From UHGV virus genome UHGV-0175244: a stretch of 44,935 bases of DNA; one strand, 5' to 3'. This DNA is from a virus. This document shows, piece by piece, positions 1,057 to 38,064 of this stretch (positions are counted from its first letter, which is position 1; the number at the start of each line of letters is the position of its first letter). A program made the translations under genes and the position numbers. The notes under the pieces were generated by a model. It made no database searches. It was not told the DNA's origin and worked only from the letters and a program-made list of their open reading frames with translations.

Positions 1057-1341
1057 TTACCGCGGATGCGGAAAGTATTTCTCCATTTTCACGAACTCTG
1101 GTTCAACCCATTTAGGCCCCTTCACTACTTGACCATTCTCACCAGTCATCAAAATTCCGGCCTGATATAATCGGTCAAACGACTCGATTAATTCCGCATT
1201 TGTGATGTGCTCTGTTCGCCCCCTGATGATTAATGGGTCTAATCTGTACAAAGGAATCTTGTACGCAAGCGCGGTTAGCAGGTCATCAATAGACTCATCA
1301 CGAAGCATTGCCTTAAATCTTTCAAGTTCAATATCTGACAT
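1057..1341 (-). CDS. hypothetical protein
   Basis: 94-aa ORF in AT-rich left flank; no recognisable motif. Confidence 0.3.
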   Translation of the reverse strand: MSDIELERFKAMLRDESIDDLLTALAYKIPLYRLDPLIIRGRTEHITNAELIESFDRLYQAGILMTGENGQVVKGPKWVEPEFVKMEKYFPHPR

Positions 1342-1804
1342 GTGAAATCAGGCTCCTGTTCCTTCAATATAACGAAGGAGTATTCATATATTACCCAAGC
1401 CTTAATATTTTTGAGGAAGGCTCCTGACAGCAACTGTATCCTACCACAGCCGCCATGCTTAGCGCTCGCTGATTATCGGTCTGAAAACATGATGCGGGTA
1501 ATGAAGTGCCCCTGCTGTTACGTGTCGTTGGCTGACAATAATGCATTCCAACTCACGCGCATCAAACGGTGCTAAAGGCCACCGCCATCAGACAGCTTAT
1601 AGGGTTTGTCCTTAGTTTTAGATATATCGACCTGGCGGGCTGCGAGCTTCACCTGAGGTATCTCCTTTCATTGAACAGGAATCTCCCTCCACATGAATGT
1701 GGATTTCAATGAATCATACAAGACATTGAGGTAATGGAATATTTGAAAATGCCGCGTATATACTGGGCTGAGTAGACTTCAGGGGACGTTAAGAGAAGTG
1801 AGTA

Positions 1805-1849
1805 TGGCACGCCCTACAGGATTCGAACCTGTGACCTACGGCTTAGAAG
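1805..1849. repeat. int-distal attachment-site core (45-bp copy of tRNA-Arg 3' end)
   Basis: tggcacgccctacaggattcgaacctgtgacctacggcttagaag is identical to 43603-43647; flanks diverge immediately outside. Confidence 0.85.
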
Positions 1850-2014
1850 AAAGTAGAGCGTTAAATAACACACTGTAATCACACATGTTTTCCGCGTTCG
1901 CATCCGGTTTTGTGTCGTTTCGTGTCGTTGTGTGACTTCCTTGTCCTTATCGCGCTTTTCAGTTACGCCACAAATGCGACACATCAAACAGGACTGGCAT
2001 CCTGCCTCAAATCG

Positions 2015-2311
2015 TTAATCGTGTGTGGCTACGCCGAGAACTTCCACATCTTCCAGCGCCTCACCTTCAATGCTCTCGCCTTCGGCTGTGATAAAAGAGC
2101 TGCCCATCAATTTTGCAAACTGCAGTTCGCCAGCCAGGCGGATAAGCAGGACGCTTCCTTGCGTCACTTTTAACGACAGGTCAACTGAGTATTTTTCAGC
2201 GATTCCGACAGTAACGGTAACAGAAGCGGCATTTTCATCGAGAGAAAGAGACTTTACCTGCCACAGAGCTGACAAGTTGAGGATATGTGCATAGAGGGAC
2301 TTTTCGTCCAT
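2015..2311 (-). CDS. hypothetical protein (between att and gtrA)
   Basis: 98-aa ORF; GAGGT about 8 nt upstream of ATG; no recognisable family. Confidence 0.35.
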   Translation of the reverse strand: MDEKSLYAHILNLSALWQVKSLSLDENAASVTVTVGIAEKYSVDLSLKVTQGSVLLIRLAGELQFAKLMGSSFITAEGESIEGEALEDVEVLGVATHD

Positions 2312-2546
2312 GGTGGTGACCTCTGGCGATTTAATACGCCATTATCATGCCTTCAGCCACCACAACAAGGGAAGACCCATGGATAAACAGTAATATCGAT
2401 CGGTAGATTTGATCAAGGCGAAACGGCTCACAGTTTTGTAAAGCCACTGTTGGCGCTGAAATTTTAATCTGGCGGCTTCGTTTATGGGTGACTAACCTCA
2501 AATTACCCACCCCGTAGCCAGCTCAGAGAGGCGCGGTTGAGTCATT

Positions 2547-2567
2547 GCCCGGTCGCCGGGCTTTTTT
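2547..2567 (+). terminator. rho-independent terminator upstream of gtr operon
   Basis: gcccgg-tcg-ccgggc hairpin followed by T6. Confidence 0.45.
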
Positions 2568-2590
2568 CATTAACCCCGCTTTACTAATTC

Positions 2591-2619
2591 TTGCCAAAAA
2601 CCAGACGTAGTGGCAAGAT
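2591..2619 (+). promoter_or_regulatory. candidate sigma70 promoter for gtrABC
   Basis: TTGCCA, 17-nt spacer, CAAGAT; weak -10; about 30 nt upstream of gtrA start. Confidence 0.25.
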
Positions 2620-2648
2620 CCGCACCTTGCGATTATAGGAATATACTG

Positions 2649-3008
2649 ATGTTAAAGCTGTTCGCTCGCTACGCTTCAGTTGGGGCGGTTAACACTCTCA
2701 TTCACTGGATAATTTTTGCTGCTCTTTACTCACAGGGCTTCAACCAGTCGATGTCAAACTTTGCGGCCTTCTGTTGCGCGGTAACCTTTTCATTTTTCGC
2801 AAATGCCAAGTGGACATTTGACGCTGAGACCACCACGTTTCGCTACATAATTTATCTTTTCTTTATGGGCGGCATGGCATCTGCAGTTGGAATGTATGCG
2901 GACAGGTCGCACTCCAGCCCTGTTATTACGCTTATTGCTTTTTCTGCCATCAGCATGGTGTGTGGATTCATTTATTCAAAGTACATTGTTTTCAAGGATA
3001 GAGGATGA
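2649..3008 (+). CDS. gtrA: GtrA-family bactoprenol-linked glucose translocase (flippase)
   Basis: ~120-aa small membrane protein; internal ATG (M14 of listed ORF) with AGGA RBS; directly precedes and overlaps gtrB. Confidence 0.8.
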
Positions 3009-3934
3009 AAATATCCCTTGTCGTTCCGGTATTTAATGAAGAAGACGCCATAACCATTTTCTATAGGGAAATCCGTCATTTTCAGCCCTTCCAGGGGGAA
3101 GAGGTTGAAATTGTCTTTGTAGATGACGGTAGCACTGACTTCACTGCTGTTCTGATGAAAGAGATGGCGCAGGAAGATAGTCTGGTCAAAAACATATTCT
3201 TTACTCGCAACTTTGGTAAAGAAGCTGCGTTATTTGCTGGGCTAGCAGAGGCCAGCGGCGAGGTGGTAATACCTATAGACGTGGACCTTCAGGACCCGCT
3301 GGAAGTCATTCCGCGCATGATTGAGAAATGGCGAGAAGGGGCTGATGTTGTTCTGGCAAAGCGCATGGATAGGTCTTGCGATAGCTACCTCAAGAAAAAA
3401 AGCGCTGAATGGTTCTACCATCTTCACAACTTAATCAGTAATCCTCAAATTGAAGAGAACGTAGGCGATTTTCGTCTTATGTCCCGAGAAGTTGTCGAAC
3501 ACATCAAGCTGCTGCCTGAGAGAAACCTTTTTATGAAGGGGATACTATCCTGGGTAGGTGGTAAGACAGATGTGGTTGAATACGTAAGAGCCGAAAGAGC
3601 CGCAGGAAAAAGTAAGTTTAATGGCTGGAAGCTTTGGAATCTGGCGCTTGAAGGGATAACGAGTTTTTCTACCTTCCCGCTGAGAATGTGGACGTATATC
3701 GGTCTCTTCGTAGCCGGTTGCTCATTTTTTTATGGGGCATACATGATTGTGGATACCCTTTGTTTTGGCAATCCGGTGAAGGGATATACATCGATAATGG
3801 TATCGATGCTATTCCTTGGCGGCGTTCAGCTGATAGGTATTGGAGTGCTCGGCGAATACATTGGCCGCATTTACATCGAAACAAAGAACAGACCAAGATA
3901 CATTACGAAAAGGGATAATGTTGAACATGAGTGA
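3005..3934 (+). CDS. gtrB: GtrB bactoprenol glucosyltransferase (GT2 family)
   Basis: 309 aa; N-terminal [10 protein letters not shown] and VDDGSTD glycosyltransferase-2 motifs; C-terminal membrane segments. Confidence 0.9.
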
Positions 3935-5411
3935 TTCAGCGTTAAAAAACGATAAATTCCAGCGAATTTTTAGAATTGTTTTGCCATTGTCCCTTTTATA
4001 CATATCTTGGATTGTTTTTACTGGCAGACTTTACATTGATGACTTAGGCCGTTCTCTTTACGGTTATACATCGTGGGGACAGGACGGCAGGCCAGCCTCT
4101 GATCTATTAATGTCAGCCTTGAGTTTTGGCACGCCAATCCTAGACATTACACCCCTTCCCCAGATTTTATCTGTCATTGCCTTAAGTGCAGTTCTGTCAC
4201 TTTGGGGGGTAAAGTATCTGCCAAGAAAAGGCACAACCTCTTCTGCTGTATGTGTTTTATATTTTATTCTATCACCATTTTTCCTTGAGAATATCTCATA
4301 TCGTTATGACTCACTACCTATGTCTTTGAGTCTTGTTGCACTATTATTGCCATATGCATTGAAGAAAAAACCTTGGTCTCCTTTTCTACATTTCATTTCT
4401 GTTATCGCTTCCCTGTCTTTTTATCAGGCATCAATATCGTTATTCATATTACTTATGATTATTGATGTAATTCATCTTTATTTTTCTAAAAAAGATGATT
4501 TAAGACATCTAGAAATAATCAAGTCAATTGCAATTAACACGCTTGCCTTTGCTGCTGGATTTGTTTTTTATAAGGTATTAATTGCTAGCTCCTTTGCGTC
4601 AGGCTCTTATTCTGATGAGCACTCAAAAATTATAAACGTTGACCACACCTTTTTTGATGTACTGTATAATAATACAGTTGTCATATTTACGTGGCTTTTA
4701 AACCCGCTTTATAAGTGCTCACCTTTTCTCTTTAAGGGGTGCGCATTGATCTTGCTAGTTAGCATCATAAAGATATCAATGACATCCAAAGATGTGAAAT
4801 CCAGAGTTATTAACTTATTTTTACTTTCCGCCTTGATTACTGCGGGCTTTTTCTCTTGCTTTGCACACATTGCACTTCTTAAAACCCCTGTGCTAGCGCC
4901 TAGAGTATTAATATCTTTCACAGGATTCTTCCTGCTTTTTGCATACCTAGTAGTCCAAGCCTTTGAAAGTAAAAAAATTCAGCTGATACTTTTGGCCCCT
5001 GTTGTTTTTTTTAGTTTCATACTTTCATTTTCTTATGCAAACGCATCAAGCTCCCAAAAGGAGCTAGATAAATTAATTTCCACCTCAATTTATAACGACA
5101 TTTCTCATCAAGATTTGAGTTTTAAAAATGTTTTCATTCATGGCGTTATGCCAACATCGAAGCAGAGGGCATTGATAGTCGAGAGACTTCCGATAATGAA
5201 TTCTCTGATACCTATTTATTTAAATAACAATTGGTCTTGGGGGGCTATGATTCTTAAGCATTACCTTCTCGACTACAATGTGGACGCAACAATTACAGAT
5301 CCAAAAAAGGAAATCTGCTCCTTAACACCATTCTCCAGGTCTAAGGATTATTCACTATACAGCAAAGGTGATACCTTAATAGTATCATTTGATAAGACTG
5401 GATGCCGCTGA
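3918..5411 (+). CDS. GtrC-type serotype-specific O-antigen glucosyltransferase (polytopic membrane protein)
   Basis: about 497 aa, highly hydrophobic, markedly AT-rich relative to the rest of the prophage; start overlaps gtrB end (ATG at 3918 or 3927); third gene of a gtr operon. Confidence 0.6.
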
Positions 5412-26719: not shown

Positions 26720-26794
26720 TGGAGCATCTGGCGGGGATCGAACCCGCATATTCTGGTTGGAAGCCAGACGTAATTACCAAACTACGACAGATGC
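26720..26794 (-). tRNA. phage-encoded tRNA-Gly (anticodon UCC)
   Basis: 75-nt cloverleaf folded by hand: perfect 7-bp acceptor and 5-bp T stems, T-loop TTCGATC, anticodon loop CUUCCAA, discriminator U, CCA encoded. Confidence 0.8.
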
Positions 26795-35819: not shown

Positions 35820-36497
35820 ATGGAAAATAAAGAAATCAGAAAAGCCAACCTGGAAGCGCTGTACGAGAAACGTCAGCACGAATCTGGAATGACCAAGGCG
35901 CAGTTCGCCGAGCTCATCGAGACAAGTCCGGCTGCGCTTAGCCAGCTACTGGGACCAAACCCTCATCGCAATATCGGCGATAAGATGGCTCGCAAAATTG
36001 AAACTGCGCTTGATCTGCCTTTTGGCTGGATGGATGTTTTACACGCCAGTGAAGAACCTTCGAACGTTGCATTTCGAGGACTTAACGAGATAAAAGGAAG
36101 TTATCCTGTGATCAGCTGGGTAAGCGCGGGGCAATGGATGGAAGCTGTAGAACCTTATCACCGAAGAGCGATAGATCGCTGGTATGACACGACCGTTGAT
36201 TGTTCAGAAGATTCATTCTGGCTTGACGTTAAAGGGGATTCTATGACCTCCCCGGCCGGACTGAGCATACCAGAGGGAGCAGCGATACTTGTTGATCCTG
36301 AAGTCGAGCCGCGCAACGGAAAGCTGGTTGTCGCGAAGCTAGAAGGCGATAACGAAGCGACCTTTAAGAAGCTTGTAATCGATGCCGGCAGACGCTTCCT
36401 TAAGCCACTTAACCCCGCGTATCCAATGCTAGAAGTTAATGGAAACTGCAAAATTATTGGCGTTGTGGTCGATGCAAAAATACTAAACATCCCATAA
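35820..36497 (+). CDS. cI: CI-type repressor (HTH plus LexA-like S24 peptidase domain)
   Basis: 225 aa from ATG at 35820; HTH MTKAQFAELIETSPAALSQLL; C-terminal autocleavage-domain character; listed ORF start 35703 is a TTG artefact. Confidence 0.85.
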   Translation: MENKEIRKANLEALYEKRQHESGMTKAQFAELIETSPAALSQLLGPNPHRNIGDKMARKIETALDLPFGWMDVLHASEEPSNVAFRGLNEIKGSYPVISWVSAGQWMEAVEPYHRRAIDRWYDTTVDCSEDSFWLDVKGDSMTSPAGLSIPEGAAILVDPEVEPRNGKLVVAKLEGDNEATFKKLVIDAGRRFLKPLNPAYPMLEVNGNCKIIGVVVDAKILNIP

Positions 36498-36516
36498 CCA
36501 CACGCAAAACCCCTCA

Positions 36517-36541
36517 AGCCCGCCATTGCGCGGGCTTTTTT
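36517..36541 (+). terminator. rho-independent terminator after cI
   Basis: agcccgc-cattg-gcgggct followed by T6-7. Confidence 0.6.
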
Positions 36542-36580
36542 GCGTCCCGAATTCCTGCGCTGTAAATTTTTAATCGCTTA

Positions 36581-36655
36581 TTAATCAAAAAGCTAAATAA
36601 AATCCGCCAATAATTTAGCATTTTGCTATTGCGCATAATTTAGCATCACGCTAAA
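36581..36655. promoter_or_regulatory. OL operator region / candidate pL
   Basis: perfect 17-bp site tttagcatcacgctaaa (36639-36655) plus two degenerate copies; same half-sites as OR. Confidence 0.45.
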
Positions 36656-37150
36656 TTTACCCCATCGAAACGAAACATCGACAGCTGAGCGAAGTTAGCC
36701 AGCGGCGGATAGCGAGTCGCCTGCTCATTAAGAATTCAGTCAAGCAGCAAATCACCCGGAGCGCTCCTGGCAAATTGAAATGGCGCCCAATGGGATTGAG
36801 GCAGGTGTGTAACGCGTGGCGGGTATAGCACACGAAGAGGACTCCGCACCGGAATGGTTTGCTGCTCAGTTCCCGAACATCGGGGAATCTTCAGTGGGAA
36901 TGTTTTGGGATTGGATGAATGCGCAGGCTGATGCGCGGGGTGGAGCGGCCCGGGTGGCTACTGAATCAAGACAGGCTGTAAGACAAGCTGTGTAAATAAC
37001 TGGTAAGCCGTAGTAGCCAATAAAGCAGGTGAAAATCATAACGTCTATCCCGCTTCGGCGGTGGCAGCTAACACCTGTGATAGTCAATGCCGGAGATCAG
37101 CGCCGGCCATCCAATCACCAAAGCATTTCGATTCATCAACCCACGCAACA

Positions 37151-37241
37151 AAGGAGCTTCTATGCGACGGCAAAGCTATATCGCTCACAAATAATCGGTA
37201 CCACAAATGCTTTCGGAAACCCCGGCGATGTCGGGGTTTTT
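37151..37241 (+). other. strong RBS plus 10-codon mini-ORF followed by rho-independent terminator (attenuator-like)
   Basis: AAGGAG-5nt-ATG CGA CGG CAA AGC TAT ATC GCT CAC AAA TAA (37162-37194); then accccg-gcgatgt-cggggt plus T-run (37219-37241). Confidence 0.4.
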
Positions 37242-37389
37242 GGTGAGTGCTTTGGGTTGGCAGACGGTTATCAGCTAGTTGGTGAGGTAATGGCTCACCA
37301 AGGCGACGACGACCTTCCCCGCTTCATTGTGGGGAGCCAGCGCCAAAGCATTTCTCCCGCATCAGCGGGTAACGACAGAGGGTAAGGCG

Positions 37390-37557
37390 ATGAGAAACAC
37401 AACAGATAAATATGCTGCCGAGTGCAGTGAAGATTACAGGCAGTATCGCAAAAAATGTCGAGCATCAGTGCGTGGTGATGGGTTTCATGACCTTTGGGTA
37501 AAGCTGGCATGGATGTGCCGACGCAACGCACGAGAATGGATTAACAGAGCCGCCTAA
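37390..37557 (+). CDS. small hypothetical protein (55 aa, Cys/Arg-rich)
   Basis: internal ATG (M22 of listed ORF) with GGGTAAGG RBS; stop codon sits in loop of a strong terminator. Confidence 0.4.
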   Translation: MRNTTDKYAAECSEDYRQYRKKCRASVRGDGFHDLWVKLAWMCRRNAREWINRAA

Positions 37558-37571
37558 CCAGCGGCTTTTTT
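37549..37571 (+). terminator. rho-independent terminator
   Basis: gccgc-ctaacca-gcggc followed by T6. Confidence 0.6.
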
Positions 37572-37707
37572 CATACCTCAGTCGCTTCACCGAGGCGGCT
37601 TAGTTATGACAATCGGCGGCCATCCACCGCCCATTGAAACACTGAATAAATGCGTTGAAGTCTTGTATTAACCGTTCGGCGGCGCGGCCTTAAGCGCGGA
37701 GATGATT

Positions 37708-38064
37708 ATGAAATACACCATGAAGGTTTATAAAAACTCTGATGACCATGCTGCTTATCTGAAAGCGCGATCCGACAGCGCCAGAAATGGCCAGTCATTT
37801 GAATGGGCGGGTCACCGCTGGGCGTACGAAGTCACCAGTTTTGACGATGCCGGCGATTACGACCTGCTTTACCGGTTTGATGACAAGCCATATCCAGAAG
37901 AAGTTTCAGTCACTACAGATGACATGACGATCCGTGACTACTTTGCGGCCAAGGCTATGCAGGGAATCATCAGCAGCGAATGCAAATATGGAGCGTTTAG
38001 TTATTTAGCAAGCGATGCATACAGCATTGCCGACGCAATGCTCCGCGCCCGGGAGGCATCATGA
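37708..38064 (+). CDS. small acidic hypothetical early protein
   Basis: 118 aa from ATG with GGAG 7 nt upstream; Asp/Glu-rich. Confidence 0.45.
   Translation: MKYTMKVYKNSDDHAAYLKARSDSARNGQSFEWAGHRWAYEVTSFDDAGDYDLLYRFDDKPYPEEVSVTTDDMTIRDYFAAKAMQGIISSECKYGAFSYLASDAYSIADAMLRAREAS

Follow-up and report, generated by a model that had tools for sequence, protein, structure and literature searches.

The window analysed here is the whole stretch of 44,935 nucleotides of the virus genome UHGV-0175244, and the subject of this work is the interval 36664-37389 on its plus strand, which lies downstream of the cI gene. This interval is the untranslated leader, of about 726 nt, of the transcript started at the early-left promoter (PL) of a phi80-like lambdoid phage without an N gene. 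The leader is a string of self-contained RNA modules that are recombined among tens to hundreds of phage contigs. One of these modules is an RNA folded as a three-way junction (hereafter the junction RNA), which follows a boxA-like site and stands in the place of boxB. We infer that boxA and the junction RNA together form an N-independent, nut-like antitermination site. Considered as a whole, the leader would be best explained by antitermination through this site, together with RNA-processing cassettes and a mini open reading frame (mini-ORF) that loads ribosomes; we give this explanation a probability of roughly one half. There is a substantial chance that one module represents a new class of antiterminator. 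The elements of the leader and of its downstream border are as follows.

36663-36721, plus strand: conserved 5' leader CATCGAAACGAAACATCGACAGCTGAGCGAAGTTAGCCAGCGGCG, whose 3' end is the hairpin GGCGGAUAGCGAGUCGCC (36704-36721)
36722-36734, plus strand: boxA-like site TGCTCATTAAGAA, aligned with the nutL boxA annotated in phi80
36743-36866, plus strand: three-way-junction RNA of 124 nt, defined by alignment, RNAalifold and a covariance model
36870-36887, plus strand: GC-rich hairpin UUCCCG-AACAU-CGGGGAA without a U tract (helix 9, 96% paired)
36899-37127, plus strand: long-stem cassette 1, defined by its inverted repeat, by covariation and by homology with lambda
37130-37342, plus strand: mobile module of 213 nt (Shine-Dalgarno sequence, mini-ORF and t1, then cassette 2)
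37151-37156, plus strand: Shine-Dalgarno sequence AAGGAG
37162-37194, plus strand: mini-ORF of 10 codons (MRRQSYIAHK), conserved in frame and length
37220-37241, plus strand: terminator t1 (GC-rich stem of 7 bp, loop GAU, then UUUUU)
37247-37351, plus strand: long-stem cassette 2, whose arms GUGCUUUGGGUUGGC and GCCAGCGCCAAAGCAU pair
37267-37313, plus strand: copy of helix 11 of the 16S rRNA, matched by the Rfam model SSU_rRNA_bacteria
37317-37334, plus strand: hairpin CCCCGC-UUCAUU-GUGGGG, in the cargo of cassette 2
37343-37389, plus strand: portable phi80-type initiation region CCAAAGCAUUUC, with the hairpin CCCGC-AUCA-GCGGG (37356-37369) and the Shine-Dalgarno sequence GAGGGUAAGG (37378-37387)
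37390-37557, plus strand: ORF55 (MRNTTDKYAAECSEDYRQYRKK...), a small basic protein of 55 codons at the phi80 N position, just outside the stretch
37548-37571, plus strand: terminator homologous to the annotated phi80 tL1A; it folds

A boxA-linked RNA in the position of boxB

The leader was compared with phi80, HK639, KO-TP1, BHUENT6, CobraSix and an Erwinia phage. These genomes share short blocks of 92-100% identity, with unrelated sequence between them, and pattern scans of viral contigs assigned every block to a unit of wide occurrence. The recurrence of the modules in other phage contigs, with compensatory base changes, is beyond chance. All the features listed in an earlier note on this DNA were recovered at the positions given there or within a few bases of them. 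The 5' leader displays 91-97% identity across 61 fetched loci, among them phi80 (with an annotated N) and HK639 (with putL). The boxA-like element that the earlier note had placed at about 36722 is present as TGCTCATTAAGAA. The same variant, TGCTCATTAA, precedes a boxB-like hairpin in relatives that encode N, including the Yersinia phage vB_YenM_30.14, and two of the other junction-RNA subtypes carry the canonical CGCTCTTTAACAA at this position. From its position and the shared variant, the site would correspond to the boxA of a lambda-type nut site, with predicted binding of NusB/NusE.

In the junction RNA, helix P1 is formed by the pairing of AGCAGCAAAUCA with UGGUUUGCUGCU, and the invariant core reads CUCCUGGCAAA..GAAAUGGC.CC...GAGG...AGAGGA. 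RNAalifold, applied to 27 representative sequences, gave 34 pairs, 12 of which are changed on both sides. Of the cells of this alignment, 97.4% are paired, compared with 29-36% for slid controls; the corresponding covariation scores are 0.359 and at most 0.043. The copy of the window and the diverged copy of locus L088, folded separately, adopt the same architecture with different helix sequences. The covariance model R2 gives 177 bits to the junction RNA of the window; searched over the whole window, rightward operon included, it found no second copy. No Rfam family corresponds to this RNA, even at E-values up to 10. The perfect palindrome GGAGCGCTCC, reported at about 36770, does exist, at 36758-36767, where it straddles two helices of the junction RNA. 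It appears to be incidental, since the diverged subtypes do not retain it.

A scan with the core sequence recovered the junction RNA from at least 120 viral contigs, and it also occurs in one genome per species of Pseudocitrobacter, Citrobacter, Trabulsiella and Enterobacter. Four diverged subtypes are distributed over five promoter/leader contexts, and their start is always located 7-9 nt after boxA. In the window this distance is 8 nt, equal to the boxA-boxB spacing of lambda. No lambda-type boxB (a 5-bp stem with a purine-rich pentaloop about 8 nt after boxA) is present at this position, where the three-way junction is found. The GC-rich hairpin on the 3' side of the RNA accompanies three of the four subtypes. 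In the relatives, the slot that follows the shared 5' leader is occupied by putL of HK639/HK022 type, by the phi80 module, by the junction RNA or by a further type, D.

The distribution of N genes differs strongly between these leaders: a BLASTP comparison with 78 N proteins detected an N-family ORF in only one of 113 junction-RNA loci, against 103 of the 160 cassette loci that have neither junction RNA nor put. The earlier note had found no arginine-rich, N-like protein in the leader, and this is upheld by a search of all six frames of the window with a profile of the same 78 proteins and with phmmer, which gave no N-family signal (best profile E-value 0.74). Ten ORFs around the immunity region likewise had no match with the N families of Pfam and PHROG, and BLASTP with the 78 N proteins was negative for the window. 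From the ORF clusters of 68 loci, the only families tracking the leader type within about 5 kb were spurious ORFs overlapping the RNA modules. The protein phrog_1331, which resembles an arginine-rich motif protein, shows no association with the type of leader, being present in 6 of 82 junction-RNA loci and in 11 of 105 N-type loci. This basic protein of 55 residues is encoded at 34797-34630 (minus strand) in the rightward operon, between cII-like and O-like genes, and its N terminus MSKTRKKYQEKEERR resembles the arginine-rich motifs of P22- and phi21-type N proteins.

Cassettes, mini-ORF and terminators of the leader

The outer helix of cassette 1 is formed by AAUGUUUUGGGAUUGGAUG and CAUCCAAUCACCAAAGCAUU, which pair over 19 bp with one bulge. 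Two hairpins lie inside, H1 (36921-36936, loop GGCUGA) and H2 (37089-37107, loop AGAUCAGCG, with the family form AGAUCAGCR). Between them is a cargo of 50-190 nt that is wholly different from one phage to another. The cassette was detected in 174 fetched loci representing 116 distinct end sequences. Over these 116 versions the outer helix is 97% paired and its outermost five pairs covary (e.g. TA 59, GC 42, AT 6), as do five of the five pairs of H1. The minimum free energy fold of cassette 1 includes the outer helix and is more stable than the folds of shuffled sequences (z-score -3.3). The UUCG hairpin noted previously at about 37050 was found at 37050-37061, inside the cargo of cassette 1, and in close relatives its stem is retained under a CUCG or CGAG loop. 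Almost no variation is seen in the H1 loop (GGCUGAU) or the H2 loop (AUCAGC), and 5-6 nt of the one are complementary to the other. A kissing contact between them or an alternative helix could result, two possibilities between which covariation does not discriminate.

The same arrangement is present in the lambda N leader, where GGCUUUGGGGUGUGUG ... CACACACCACCAAAGCUAAC are followed by a Shine-Dalgarno sequence and by N; the core UUUGGG/C(A)CCAAAGC is common to both and is found again in cassette 2. In more than 100 fetched loci, an N-family gene (of lambda, P22, phi21 or other types) begins within about 25 nt on the 3' side of the cassette. As judged from sequence, cassette 1 is a homologue of the lambda N-leader hairpin, because the arrangement is shared and because the N gene directly follows the cassette in these loci. 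The lambda hairpin is cleaved by RNase III and controls the translation of N, a cut and a control that were reportedly described by Kameyama et al. in 1991; our literature search on the RNase III site of the lambda N leader returned nothing directly on point. The ZCEC13-like E. coli phage vB_Eco_CWW26 carries a cassette in which H1 and H2 are conserved, the outer arms are different and the cargo is a helix 11 copy. This cassette (L320, 860-995) is complete and lies between baseplate-spike and tail-fibre genes, with a strong terminator after it. As it stands alone there, the cassette is an autonomous unit whose occurrence extends beyond N leaders. The cargos of loci L100, L150 and L281 contain tRNA-like D-arm and T-arm sequences, e.g. 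GCTCAGATGGTAGAGC ... GGTTCGAGTCCATC; ARAGORN called no tRNA in these three cargos.

The cargo of cassette 2 includes a copy of a ribosomal RNA helix. In a search of 76 nt, the Rfam model SSU_rRNA_bacteria was matched over positions 237-283 with 33 bits (E-value 8.5e-9). This score is below the gathering score of 50 set for the whole gene, as expected of one helix, and the full helix 11 is matched. The cargo is 95% identical to positions 233-272 of the Salmonella 16S rRNA. Consequently, the 8-bp stem TTGGTGAG/CTCACCAA that had been described at about 37270 is present within 37267-37313, as the top of the helix 11 copy and not as a separate stem. Differently armed cassettes carry the same kind of cargo in loci L140 and L151 (the latter in an E. 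coli-type version), in the Yersinia phage vB_YenM_30.14, whose copy lies in an N leader, and in vB_Eco_CWW26; helix 11 copies are located at about 915-975 in L319 and about 893-950 in L320. Such copies may act as decoys for a helix 11-binding protein; a literature search for a phage mimic of 16S helix 11 returned nothing directly on point. In the variants of the neighbouring hairpin CCCCGC-UUCAUU-GUGGGG, pairing is preserved only through G-U pairs, which points to a plus-strand RNA. Similar short 16S matches were seen in Shewanella, Stenotrophomonas, Streptomyces, Moraxella and T4-like Serratia and Cronobacter phages.

The strong ribosome-binding site and the 10-codon mini-ORF announced by the earlier note at 37162-37194 are both present, and so is the terminator placed at 37219-37241, whose hairpin and five T residues occupy 37220-37241. 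A GC-rich hairpin followed by a U tract, characteristic of intrinsic terminators, is found in t1 as well as at 37548-37571, and the extended fold of t1 reaches -22.5 kcal/mol. The stop codon of the mini-ORF is 25 nt upstream of the t1 hairpin. Mini-ORF and Shine-Dalgarno sequence are identical in six loci. In the variant of L011 (88% identity) the Shine-Dalgarno sequence, frame and length are kept (MRRQSNTTHK) despite a different upstream sequence, and the t1 stem shows a compensatory change from C-G to G-C. These elements belong to the mobile module, which displays 96-100% identity in six other loci and 88% in L011 and is partially present in L140 and L151. Compared with KO-TP1, the module is an insertion between copies of the 12-nt repeat CCAAAGCATTTC (at 37118 and 37343). 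It follows a put leader in L014, phi80-type leaders in L025, L137 and L183, and junction-RNA leaders in the window, L098 and L103; in L011 it is located on the 3' side of an intact N gene, and the mini-ORF is therefore not a remnant of N. Other tiny ORFs with a strong Shine-Dalgarno sequence occur in the PL leaders of relatives without N (L088, L033, L139, L151, L281, L219 and L140). They read ATG-AAG-CAC-TAA (MKH), ATG-AAG-AAC-TAA (MKN) or a bare ATG-TAA, and may be ribosome-loading sites.

The initiation region that ends the leader is conserved at 94-100% identity in phi80 (96%), HK639, KO-TP1, BHUENT6 and CobraSix, and in about 40 further loci it stands in front of unrelated small ORFs. The earlier note, which reported no ORF where N would be expected, overlooked ORF55, which begins one base downstream of the stretch at the phi80 N position and shares with phi80 N the upstream initiation region and the downstream terminator tL1A. 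ORF55 matches no Pfam or PHROG family and is not recorded as a called gene. Among 5.8 billion proteins it has seven homologues (66-95% identity, with conservative substitutions), none of them named; it looks like a real but rare small protein. Phages with an identical junction RNA or t1 module have quite different genes at this position. More generally, the gene at the phi80 'N' position (1918-2214 in L002, with counterparts in about 40 loci that share the initiation region) is hypervariable behind near-identical leaders, and the annotation as N in phi80-type phages thus becomes doubtful; a literature search on the function of phi80 N returned nothing directly on point. An Erwinia phage has a phi21-type N in addition to a homologue of the phi80 'N' at another place.

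Beyond tL1A, the hairpin GGCGG-CCAUCCA-CCGCC (37615-37631) is conserved in phi80, HK639, KO-TP1 and BHUENT6, and the corresponding region of phi80 is annotated as the rho-dependent terminator tL1B. The sequence CGGCCATCCA is common to this hairpin and to 37101-37113, where H2 adjoins the 3' arm of cassette 1.

Proposed mechanism and alternative explanations

According to the explanation that we prefer, the boxA-like site would recruit the host NusB/NusE complex, and the junction RNA, in place of boxB and N, would keep the Nus-modified polymerase resistant to termination in cis. Transcription would then pass t1, tL1A and later signals. Cutting of the cassettes by RNase III would detach the antitermination RNA from the message that follows it, release the cargo RNAs (the 16S helix 11 copy among them) and make the initiation region of the ORF downstream accessible. 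Ribosomes are probably loaded onto the long leader just before t1 through the mini-ORF, whose ribosome-binding site is strong, and Nus factors held at boxA may help the cassettes to fold. Several observations argue for the antitermination role: the RNA has the position and the spacing of boxB, it alternates with putL, it nearly excludes N, no protein family within about 5 kb tracks the leader type, and the two terminators t1 and tL1A precede kil, gam, recT and exo. Moreover, the t1 module is found behind put, phi80-type and junction-RNA leaders alike, which is hard to reconcile with a passage of t1 by put leaders only.

Other observations weigh against this explanation. The argument for antitermination is drawn from position, substitution pattern and co-occurrence, and the cleavage of the window cassettes by RNase III is extrapolated from work on lambda. 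The covariation comes from four subtypes and thus from few independent events. The loci were fetched with limited flanks, so that a partner protein could be encoded farther away. The rrn boxA consensus is TGCTCTTTAACAA, and the boxA of the window differs from it at two positions. The window has one junction-RNA copy and none in its rightward operon, whereas HK022 has both putL and putR. Finally, exclusivity is incomplete, as locus L281 combines the junction RNA with a lambda-like N gene and putR, and the RNA could therefore have another purpose. This locus is a mosaic (1100-3940) of a phi80-like PL, boxA with the junction RNA, a lambda-like cassette with N, and a rightward putR. A second candidate for a locus with both junction RNA and put, L248, was rejected as an artefact of the motif search.

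A more specific version, in which the 124-nt RNA acts with host Nus factors as a replacement of boxB and N ('ribo-N'), midway between the nut and put mechanisms, while the cassettes serve as a platform for small cargo RNAs including helix 11 decoys, is tentative and in our judgement less probable than not.

An unlikely alternative is that boxA and the junction RNA are the nut site of an unrecognised antiterminator protein, either a host factor or a small phage protein such as ORF55, the RNA being an oversized boxB. The geometry is that of nut, a structure being placed 8 nt beyond boxA; ORF55 is small, basic and located at the N position; and L281 pairs the RNA with a lambda-like N gene. In addition, the invariant A-rich loop of the RNA (AAA..GAAAU) recalls the A-rich boxB loops described in PMC11893012. 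ORF55, with its seven homologues, is however absent from other loci with an identical RNA; as it does not travel with the leader modules, a matched N-nut pair is disfavoured. No protein cluster follows the leader type, phrog_1331 is unassociated with it, and the N profile search was negative.

It is likewise improbable that processive antitermination is lacking altogether and that the leader is a unit of processing and attenuation, in which most PL transcripts would end at t1, RNase III would free stable small RNAs acting in trans (the junction RNA, the cassette cargos and the helix 11 copy), and leaky read-through would suffice for the genes beyond. A good intrinsic terminator inside the leader, the diversity of the cargos with a recurring helix 11 copy, the stand-alone cassette and terminator among the structural genes of vB_Eco_CWW26, and the single junction RNA on the PL side only are all consistent with such a unit. 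It fits poorly with the position of Kil, Gam, RecT and the exonuclease beyond two terminators and with the same terminator module behind a bona fide put leader, and it leaves the fixed linkage to boxA and the near-exclusivity with N unexplained. The narrower proposal of the earlier note, a small-RNA locus, is plausible, since RNase III, if it cuts the two homologues of the lambda N-leader hairpin, would set small RNAs free.

We regard as quite improbable the related idea of a leader-peptide attenuator, in which translation of MRRQSYIAHK would set termination at t1. The Shine-Dalgarno sequence is strong, the diverged copy keeps frame and length along with a compensatory change in t1, the stop codon is close to the hairpin, and tiny ORFs of this kind (MKH, MKN, ATG-TAA) recur in related leaders. 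On the other side, no alternative antiterminator pairing was found, the codon content hints at no sensed amino acid, and the module of L011 is placed after an intact N gene, as an ordinary tL1 module would be.

A decayed N gene or a pseudogene region, also proposed in the earlier note, is very improbable: an initiation region and a terminator do remain at the N position, but the six-frame N search was negative, every segment is an intact module conserved elsewhere, and in L011 the mini-ORF coexists with an intact N gene.

The possibility to which we attach the least credit is that the leader belongs to the put family of HK022 and HK639. Put RNA needs no protein factors for its action in cis on RNA polymerase, and mutations in the zinc-binding domain of beta-prime block this action (PMC9378689). 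The location, a short distance after an early promoter in an N-less phage, is the one expected of put, and the slot behind the shared 5' leader is that of the annotated putL-like RNA of HK639. The covariance model R1, built from eight put RNAs, nevertheless finds no match in the PL leader: true puts score 58-101 bits, and the best hit in the window (12.2 bits, E-value 0.28) falls in an unrelated region, on the minus strand at 2563-2637. Searches of the window for put motifs were negative, and the put consensus GAACGGCNCG...CGUCGG...GGCGGG.UCAGGA.GA.CGGCAAU was not found in the leader. Of the put-like RNA element suggested by the earlier note, membership in the put family is thus refuted by the R1 search, and what stands is a different conserved RNA, linked to boxA, in the putL slot. 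The phi80 module had seemed put-like by eye; this resemblance was not confirmed, R1 and the motif searches being negative for the leaders of phi80, KO-TP1 and BHUENT6.

Comparison with known leaders and setting of the locus

The whole leader is a variant of the lambda/phi80 N leader, in which boxA, the hairpin of RNase III type and the terminators are known kinds of element. In lambda as in the window, promoter, boxA, a structure 8 nt on, a long helix and the ribosome-binding site of the first gene follow each other in that order. The long, near-perfect helix expected after the nut region and ahead of the first ribosome-binding site is formed by cassette 1, which matches the lambda hairpin in helix core, bulge and position. 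The window differs by having neither boxB nor N, by its three-way junction at the boxB position, by a second cassette, separated from the first by a mini-ORF and an intrinsic terminator, and by its helix 11 cargo. A non-coding stretch before N is normal, but the leader of the window is about three times longer than that of lambda (about 220 nt).

With phi80, the window shares a 92% identical 5' leader, the position of boxA, the initiation region and tL1A. The phi80 module of about 165 nt, which from our reading of the sequence comprises boxA and a closed multi-helix domain of about 150 nt (a compensatory variant of its 'nutL core' hairpin is present in L069), is replaced in the window by the junction RNA, and the phi80 'N' by ORF55. 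The arms of cassette 1, the t1 module and cassette 2 are all absent from phi80. The put phages HK022 and HK639 have in common with the window a structured RNA shortly after PL in the absence of N, and HK639 also shares the first 45 nt or so of the leader, with put in the same slot. Their RNAs have no homology of sequence or structure with that of the window: put is composed of two stems over about 70 nt, in leaders without boxA, whereas the RNA of the window is a three-way junction of 124 nt, tied to boxA and present in one copy.

A likeness with the leaders of rRNA operons, which involve boxA, Nus factors with SuhB and an RNase III leader-trailer helix, was also observed. There, too, a hairpin precedes boxA and long-range helices enclose structured RNA, and one cargo of the window is literally a 16S helix. 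The cargos of the window are distinguished by their small size (50-190 nt), their hypervariability and their location in a phage early operon, and its boxA by the two mismatches mentioned above. According to a model for rRNA operons, Nus factors bound at boxA keep it tethered to the polymerase and so help the RNase III leader-trailer helix to form (PMC4807359).

Many lambdoid phages have no recognisable N gene, and for these the authors of PMC12315714 currently guess at a put-like mechanism. The junction RNA is a concrete candidate for the means by which such phages read through their early terminators. If the proposal is true, it would be a third solution to early antitermination beside N/nut and put, and the only one to join boxA with a large RNA. 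The membership of the lambda N-leader hairpin in a widespread cassette family points to small RNAs made by phages, which may act on ribosome proteins or host defences. To our knowledge and by comparison with Rfam, neither the junction-RNA family, nor the place of the N-leader hairpin in a family of cassettes with hypervariable cargo, nor the recurring helix 11 cargo has been described.

The immunity region upstream of the leader contains the following elements.

35703-35470, minus strand: cro, in the lambdoid immunity region
35820-36497, plus strand: cI of LexA type, in the lambdoid immunity region
36516-36537, plus strand: cI terminator, from the terminator scan
36610-36628 and 36635-36653: operator repeats, from a repeat search
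36629-36657, plus strand: putative PL, with a -35 box TTGCGC (36629-36634), a 17-nt spacer and a -10 box TAAATT (36652-36657)

PL was placed by its homology to the annotated -35 and -10 boxes of phi80 pL and by its overlap with the operators, and the transcript would start near 36664. Downstream of the leader, the gene order is ORF55, the tL1A homologue, two small ORFs without assigned function, Kil, GamL, RecT and the exonuclease. With promoter, operators and downstream early genes in place, the stretch is an untranslated PL leader. A simple promoter/terminator scan listed none of PL, t1 and tL1A, which was not counted as evidence against them. The statement of the earlier note that some 730 bp lack a convincing ORF is borne out: the conserved mini-ORF is the sole credible ORF in 36664-37389. 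Neither of two longer ORFs (59 and 118 codons) has a Pfam or PHROG match, and pairwise comparison of phages revealed that mosaic boundaries run through both. In the metagenome contig L305, which has an identical cI protein and the same flanking genes, the gene caller left the leader interval empty. A permissive Rfam scan of 36400-37800 gave only weak terminator-like and chance matches.

The cI protein was found on short metagenome contigs only. Among 5426 E. coli genomes, 139 match the region, as pieces of which none covers more than 80%. The host is probably an enterobacterium. At gathering thresholds, Rfam detected in the whole window only two tRNAs, at 26723-26794 and 43606-43679 (both minus strand); the tRNA near 43.6 kb is a possible marker of the site at which the prophage is attached. 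Finally, an ORF of 104 codons belonging to phrog_16212 (38430-38744, minus strand) is located inside the early-left operon, on the opposite strand, between kil and gam.

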